From Candidatus Heimdallarchaeota archaeon B3_Heim (GTDB lineage Archaea > Asgardarchaeota > Heimdallarchaeia > Hodarchaeales > Hodarchaeaceae), in NCBI GenBank assembly GCA_003144275.1, contig NJBF01000001.1, forward strand, positions 150,001 to 182,000: DNA of 32,000 nucleotides. Reading direction: 5' to 3'. A program made the translations under genes and the position numbers. This document shows, one piece after another, positions 18,964-19,047 of the stretch; position 1 is the first letter of the stretch, and each line of letters starts with the position of its first letter. The notes beneath the pieces were generated by a model, which saw nothing but the letters and a program-made list of their open reading frames with translations, was not told the origin of the DNA and did not search any database.

Positions 18964-19047
18964 ATGATGAATACTGACCTATACTGATGATGGGTTCATA
19001 ATCGGACACCACTTGAACCTATTTATGATGTCCATGTACCTCACTGA
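18964..19047 (+). ncRNA. Box C/D guide RNA predicted to target both strands of SSU rRNA helix 34
   Basis: C ATGATGA 18964-70; D' guide ATACTGACCTATA; D' CTGA 18984-87; 10-bp internal stem; C' ATGATGT 19025-31; D guide CCATGTACCTCA; D CTGA 19044-47. Both guides match conserved archaeal 16S segments recalled from memory. Confidence 0.85.

Follow-up and report, generated by a model that had tools for sequence, protein, structure and literature searches.

A conserved stem-loop in a Hodarchaeales box C/D sRNA as a candidate extra base-pairing element for helices 36 and 37 of 16S rRNA

We report that an unannotated box C/D double-guide sRNA, encoded in a 32,000-nucleotide stretch of a Candidatus Heimdallarchaeota genome (the window), displays between its boxes D' and C' a stem-loop with a conserved core that is complementary to the helix 36/37 region of 16S rRNA. 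We propose, with a probability of roughly two in three, that this arm is an extra base-pairing element of the eukaryotic type that docks the sRNP within the head of the 30S subunit.

Results

The sRNA is located in the gap between rpl10e (18254-18772), upstream, and pth2 (19126-19503), downstream (Table 1). A homologue is present in 20 of 21 congeners, and rpl10e, pth2, or both adjoin it at every homologous locus that was checked. An Rfam search revealed no match over the sRNA, for which there is no Rfam family. As in archaeal C/D sRNAs, boxes C, D', C', and D occur in this order and are combined with guides of approximately 12 nt, and genes for fibrillarin and Nop5 are present on the same contig as the sRNA. 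Instead of the short terminal K-loop expected between D' and C', the RNA contains a 37-nt insert with a 10-bp stem. K-turn geometry indicates that the terminal U of box C' can pair with the invariant A18983 preceding box D'. A small hairpin (19047-19061, plus strand; -7.0 kcal/mol) directly follows box D in the host clade and is absent from most congeners.

Table 1. Features of the sRNA (window coordinates; WC, Watson-Crick)
Feature	Position	Strand	Remarks
Box C/D double-guide sRNA, box C to box D	18964-19047	+	Unannotated; gap between rpl10e and pth2
Box C (AUGAUGA)	18964-18970	+	
D' guide	18971-18983	+	10 WC and 1 GU pairs with the 3' strand of 16S helix 34
Box D' (CUGA)	18984-18987	+	Invariant
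5' arm of internal stem	18989-18998	+	
Variable 5' part of loop	18999-19003	+	Extends pairing onto 16S 1023-1027
Loop core (GGACACC)	19004-19010	+	Invariant; antisense to 16S 1016-1022
Variable 3' part of loop	19011-19013	+	Required by the post-530 match; not conserved
3' arm of internal stem	19014-19023	+	UGA at its start; 19013-19016 may be a latent D-like box
Box C' (AUGAUGU)	19025-19031	+	
D guide	19032-19043	+	11 pairs (one GU) with the 5' strand of 16S helix 34, 983-993
Box D (CUGA)	19044-19047	+	

The host 16S rRNA gene is complete, and rRNA positions are given in its numbering, with E. coli equivalents obtained from an alignment. The D' guide pairs with 16S positions 1139-1149, its +5 base (C18979) designating G1142 (E. 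coli 1197) for predicted 2'-O-methylation, whereas the +5 base of the D guide (C19039) designates G986 (E. coli 1051). The guide-target duplexes extend over approximately 10 bp across the +5 base, with a top score of 8.3 compared to 3.0 for the best match in a reversed-rRNA control. According to the Rfam structure line, the two targets are opposite strands of 16S helix 34, in agreement with an earlier note on this DNA, which had described the RNA as a helix-34 guide. Judged by these complementarities, the sRNA, which is presumably expressed, is a Hodarchaeales double guide, one guide for each strand of helix 34, with Gm986 and Gm1142 as the predicted products.

The earlier note had also placed a hairpin made of a 10-bp stem and a 15-nt loop (18999-19013) between boxes D' and C', and its coordinates were confirmed. 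The insert folds into this hairpin with a free energy of -10.7 kcal/mol (z score, -2.6). In the set of homologues, which comprises 26 distinct sequences from a single genus that are not independent, 89.6% of the cells of the stem are paired, and 7 of the 10 pairs show two-sided (compensatory) changes. None of 500 shuffles scored as high, and slid controls gave 25 to 48%. RNAalifold recovered the stem, and 8 to 11 stem pairs surround an open core in all 26 sequences. The hairpin is thus a genuine feature, with covariation in support of its stem.

The earlier note had made its proposal conditional on conservation of the loop. Conservation holds for the core, with GGACAC found in 26/26 homologues and GGACACC in 25/26, but not for the eight other loop positions, which carry 0.4 to 0.8 bit. 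The core is fixed although Pth2 identity drops to 62% and the flanking DNA is largely unalignable. Hairpins between D' and C' also occur in two further C/D RNAs of Hodarchaeum; since their loops are not conserved, conservation of the core reflects specific selection. The conserved segment lies between D' and C', outside the boxes and guides, as reported for extra base-pairing elements (PMC3116282). Taken together, the aligned homologues argue that the loop is under selection.

Additional RNA genes were observed. The genome-wide C/D scan was strict, so that its 5 candidates are not a census. The C/D RNA encoded at L245 (G000:C4:31575, plus strand) has 16S U466 (E. coli 531) as its guide target and contains a hairpin insert of 23 nt, the loop of which served as a control and is not conserved. 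The C/D sRNA at L246 (G000:C21:25290, minus strand) is conserved, carries a variable insert of 34 nt, and has a D' guide directed to domain V of 23S rRNA; no convincing rRNA target was established for its invariant D guide, AGUUGCACUU. In the window, positions 15137-15233 (plus strand) gave a weak match to SNORD91 (E value, 0.73) and look like a further C/D-type RNA, in which a terminal stem is combined with approximately 30 nt inserted between D' and C'. Two tRNA genes are located on the minus strand at positions 5028-5130 and 5346-5401, the former containing an insertion of approximately 29 nt on the 3' side of the anticodon arm that is probably a non-canonical intron.

The 16S complement of the core, 1016-1022 (E. 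coli 1081-1087), runs from the 3' strand of helix 36 through the linker into the 5' strand of helix 37, and begins 23 nt 3' of the D-guide duplex. A scan of all 16S registers ranked 1013-1027 first; no homologue forms fewer than 7 WC pairs there, and the mean is 8.1, versus a mean of 5.9 for the runner-up. The sequence GGUGUCC is present in a single copy in the 16S rRNAs of genomes G000, G016, and G001, is accompanied by a second, private copy in G007, and is absent from the genus's own 23S pieces (approximately 3,090 nt). Positions 1016-1022 are therefore, within the rRNA sampled, the only such site common to the 16S rRNAs of the genus and in its 23S rRNA. The 7 to 12 bp formed 23 nt from the D-guide duplex compare with the 4 to 11 bp described next to the methylation targets of extra base-pairing elements, the spacing being somewhat beyond the "immediately" adjacent position of that description (PMC3116282).

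The 5' flank of the core, which was not used in choosing the site, pairs with 16S 1023-1027 in 70% of the cells, versus a null mean of 39%. This pairing is equaled by 0.3% of rRNA 5-mers, in a null that included a foreign 23S rRNA (see below). The A/G and C/U variation of the flank is also expected from transition bias, which mimics wobble conservation. Perfect antisense sequences of 11 to 12 nt are found in L019, L020/L152, and L151, with chance probabilities of about 0.005 and 0.001 each. The scattered distribution of these homologues, which stand apart on the protein tree, suggests that the arm began as a full 12-mer and has since been eroded at its 5' end. L021, the sole homologue with a changed core, still forms 7 pairs, having gained pairing on the 5' side. 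Positions 1016-1022 are invariant in all four congener 16S rRNAs examined, and searches of other Heimdallarchaeia families, in which the target differs, with a covariance model and patterns identified no homologue. For these reasons, no compensatory change between the loop and rRNA is visible.

Two other sets of targets were rejected. Positions 216-226 of 16S rRNA provide the longest match in the host (11 perfect pairs) and rival helix 36/37 in pairing there, but this match is limited to the host's own clade, and only 4 WC pairs form in 19/26 homologues. Three GGUGUCC sites are present in a full 23S rRNA gene of contig G001:C57, which was discarded as foreign because its identity to the 23S rRNA of the genus itself is only 64%. 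This complete gene (L190; G001:C57:307-3242) probably belongs to a contaminant contig, its 64% identity being to the other 23S rRNA of the same genome. The large-subunit rows of the register scan and of the flank test used this foreign gene and do not bear on the genus.

In the sister family, a syntenic homologue (G022; L125:1485-1571) contains a different, 27-nt insert. Its hairpin loop, with GACUUAAC, is antisense to the helix-37 loop (1024-1031), directly beyond the target of the core. The match reaches 10 nt against the 16S rRNAs of two other Heimdallarchaeia, used in place of that of the lineage itself, and GUUAAGUCCG, if present in helix 37 of G022, would provide a 10-bp match. Methanopyrus sR91 carries the same CGGACUUAAC as the G022 insert, as an ordinary guide. 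Three other Asgard families have the same pair of guides, two of them in a compact form (3- to 5-nt loop) and one with a short hairpin, indicating that the double guide is old, that the long arm is a Hodarchaeales addition, and that the arm is dispensable in these families. Compact and short-hairpin forms of the helix-34 double guide across Asgard families are found at L049-L052, L087, L095-L096, and L077-L082; searches of family f14, which is Lokiarchaeia-sized, and of further Heimdallarchaeia families detected none. A long-insert candidate from family f12 (L161) was rejected, as its pattern is not kept in its relatives. The sequences at hand thus suggest an arm confined to one genus, plus one suggestive case in the sister family.

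Discussion

The earlier note had proposed that the loop is an accessory antisense element resembling the extra base-pairing of eukaryotic snoRNAs. This general idea is supported by the conserved core and its match to helix 36/37, but the target originally assigned to it, the 16S segment following the 530 loop, is not. That site had been placed correctly (host 482-496, corresponding to E. coli 547-561). In the host, where the segment reads AGUGGUG-AUCAU-GAUUA, it offers only 7 contiguous WC pairs, short of the approximately 9 on which the proposal had been made to depend together with loop conservation, and pairing relies on the variable loop ends. Across homologues, the longest WC run is 3 to 7 pairs, mostly 4 to 5, and a mismatch falls inside the invariant core. 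The mean duplex energy of the homologues is -16.8 kcal/mol for helix 36/37 versus -10.5 kcal/mol for the post-530 segment. For cognate sRNA/16S pairs, the values are -18.8 (G016 and G001) and -15.5 (G007) versus -7.1 (G016), -7.1 (G001), and -8.8 (G007) kcal/mol. In the host itself, where helix 36/37 forms 7+4 pairs only (-15.6 kcal/mol), a bulged post-530 duplex is on a par (-16.1 kcal/mol); this duplex is possible in the host only, and it explains the impression recorded in the earlier note. Yeast snR40 acts on both helix 34 and helix 18, although via an ordinary guide (PMC4344503). Pairing of the loop with 16S 482-498, bridging head and body, is thus highly improbable. With the better-supported target located beside helix 34, the three predicted contacts of the sRNA are all in the head, and the head-body bridge is abandoned. 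We consider even less credible an intramolecular switch in which GGACA (19004-19008) pairs with UGUCC (19029-19033), a segment that overlaps box C' and the first bases of the D guide. The host could form five perfect pairs in this way, but base 19032 varies (C in 14, U in 7, A in 4, and G in 1 of the sequences) while its partner G19005 is unchanging, pairing with A18983 accounts for the terminal U of C', and C19009-C19010 are left unexplained.

A reading that shares the helix 36/37 target and differs in chemistry is that of a switchable third guide. Opening of the stem would allow UUGA (19013-19016), which the earlier note had viewed as an extra D box, to form a K-loop with box C' eight bases downstream, and the loop, which may be a captured guide-plus-D-box module, would direct 2'-O-methylation of 16S U1018 (E. 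coli U1083). The geometry of this motif is indeed suggestive. N-UGA follows the core in 23/26 homologues, in 22/26 by exactly 2 nt; the +5 base, A19008, opposite U1018, belongs to the invariant core; variation within the stem is lowest at its top three pairs; and alternative C'/D' registers are known in yeast snR13, snR48, and U18 (PMC5389607). This UGA is nonetheless paired in the stem and is lost in three homologues, L022 and L160 (AUAA) and L013 (AAGA), with matching changes in the other arm. Because these three homologues lose UGA, and a fourth, L023, has its register shifted by one, whereas all keep the core, a present-day box function is not required. The stem, worth about -10 kcal/mol, is in addition kept by covariation, and the switch would displace the invariant box D' together with the D' guide. 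We therefore view a third guide as unlikely. About as unlikely, in our estimation, is that the rRNA match is fortuitous and that the core serves instead as a protein-binding or structural motif, or has its partner in an RNA outside our sample. A lone 7-mer finds a match by chance in 24% of cases anywhere in rRNA, albeit in 1.5% near a guide site, and no loop-rRNA covariation is observed. Protein binding is named as an alternative in PMC3116282. GUGUCC is absent from the 22 tRNA genes scanned, and 5S rRNA was looked for and not recovered. A fortuitous match, however, leaves unexplained the extension of pairing into the flank to 11 to 12 perfect pairs, the short distance to the D-guide site, and the insert of G022, which is aimed at the adjoining bases.

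For the preferred reading, extra base-pairing with helix 36/37, the following mechanism may be envisaged. K-turn geometry lets C' and D' form a kink. In this sRNA the 10-bp stem would take the place of a short K-loop in closing the kink and would present the 15-nt loop. The core, together with up to five pairs on its 5' side, would anneal to pre-16S rRNA at positions 1016-1027 (E. coli 1081-1092) while helices 36 and 37 are still open. This pairing would keep the particle formed by L7Ae, Nop5, and fibrillarin tethered to the unfolded head domain near helix 34, which would help both guides to invade, or compete with, this long-range helix and to methylate G986 and G1142. The loop would be released as the head folds, before helices 36 and 37 close. 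A stimulatory or docking role of this kind is the one proposed for extra base-pairing in eukaryotes (PMC3116282).

Eukaryotic extra base-pairing involves conserved antisense elements of 4 to 11 nt, which are mostly found between D' and C' and next to the methylation site, are generally not located beside a D box, and stimulate methylation up to five-fold (PMC3116282). This study (van Nues et al. 2011) presents snR70 as an example and lists snR40 and snR56. The position, length, and adjacency of the Hodarchaeales arm fit this description. Unlike the eukaryotic elements, the arm belongs to an archaeal double-guide sRNA in which both guides are intact, with predicted sites 156 nt apart, and its target lies 23 nt from a guide duplex. 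The resemblance does not in itself establish common descent with the eukaryotic elements. In yeast, snR40 and snR56 direct formation of Gm1271 and Gm1428, respectively (PMC5464676, PMC4344503). Two separate snoRNAs are thus used in yeast, whereas the host covers both sites with one RNA. We take Gm1271 and Gm1428 to be the predicted equivalents of the host sites, from a base-level mapping onto 18S rRNA; the spacing is 157 nt in yeast versus 156 nt in the host.

Among archaea, long-range double guides proposed to act as rRNA chaperones include sR15 and sR17 of Neq and sR2, sR53, and sR56 of Pyrobaculum (PMC4644070, PMC6009581). These RNAs resemble the Hodarchaeales sRNA in having two guides for opposite strands of one 16S helix and differ from it in acting on helices 28, 30, and others; a chaperone role of the latter for helix 34 may similarly be envisaged. 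Table 3 of this literature (PMC4644070, PMC6009581) contains no RNA with the pair of sites predicted for the host sRNA, and text searches of PMC4644070, PMC6009581, and PMC7994747 revealed no account of a third antisense element in a D'-C' stem-loop. Single guides are shared with other archaea (Dennis et al. 2015, supplement): the D guide of Sulfolobus Sac-sR6, like that of the host, matches the 5' strand of helix 34, and Pyrobaculum Pca-sR32 has the same ACUGACCU guide as the host sRNA. Sac-sR6 and Pca-sR32 are, however, distinct RNAs; each has a short K-loop and lacks the internal arm.

Archaeal guide RNAs are generally pictured as compact molecules with two guides and a K-loop as closure. 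Extra base-pairing has been described for yeast and human snoRNAs, and the open-access literature searched contains no report of it in an archaeal sRNA and none of snoRNA-like guides in Hodarchaeales. Since archaeal sRNPs can be reconstituted from three proteins, the proposed mechanism is directly testable in vitro.

Hodarchaeales are an Asgard order often placed nearest to eukaryotes. An archaeal case of extra base-pairing, on a guide for two sites that are methylated in eukaryotes, suggests that this feature predates eukaryotes or, alternatively, that it arises easily when the C'/D' loop has become longer. A more speculative extension, which we hold to be doubtful, is that Hodarchaeales already use accessory pairing of the snoRNA type, that this sRNA alone clamps both strands of helix 34 and, as a third segment of the 16S head, helix 36/37, and that its arm is a captured guide-plus-D-box module, perhaps still methylating U1018. 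If so, the three-segment clamp and the capture of the module would represent an archaeal precursor state and a mechanism of origin for eukaryotic extra base-pairing.
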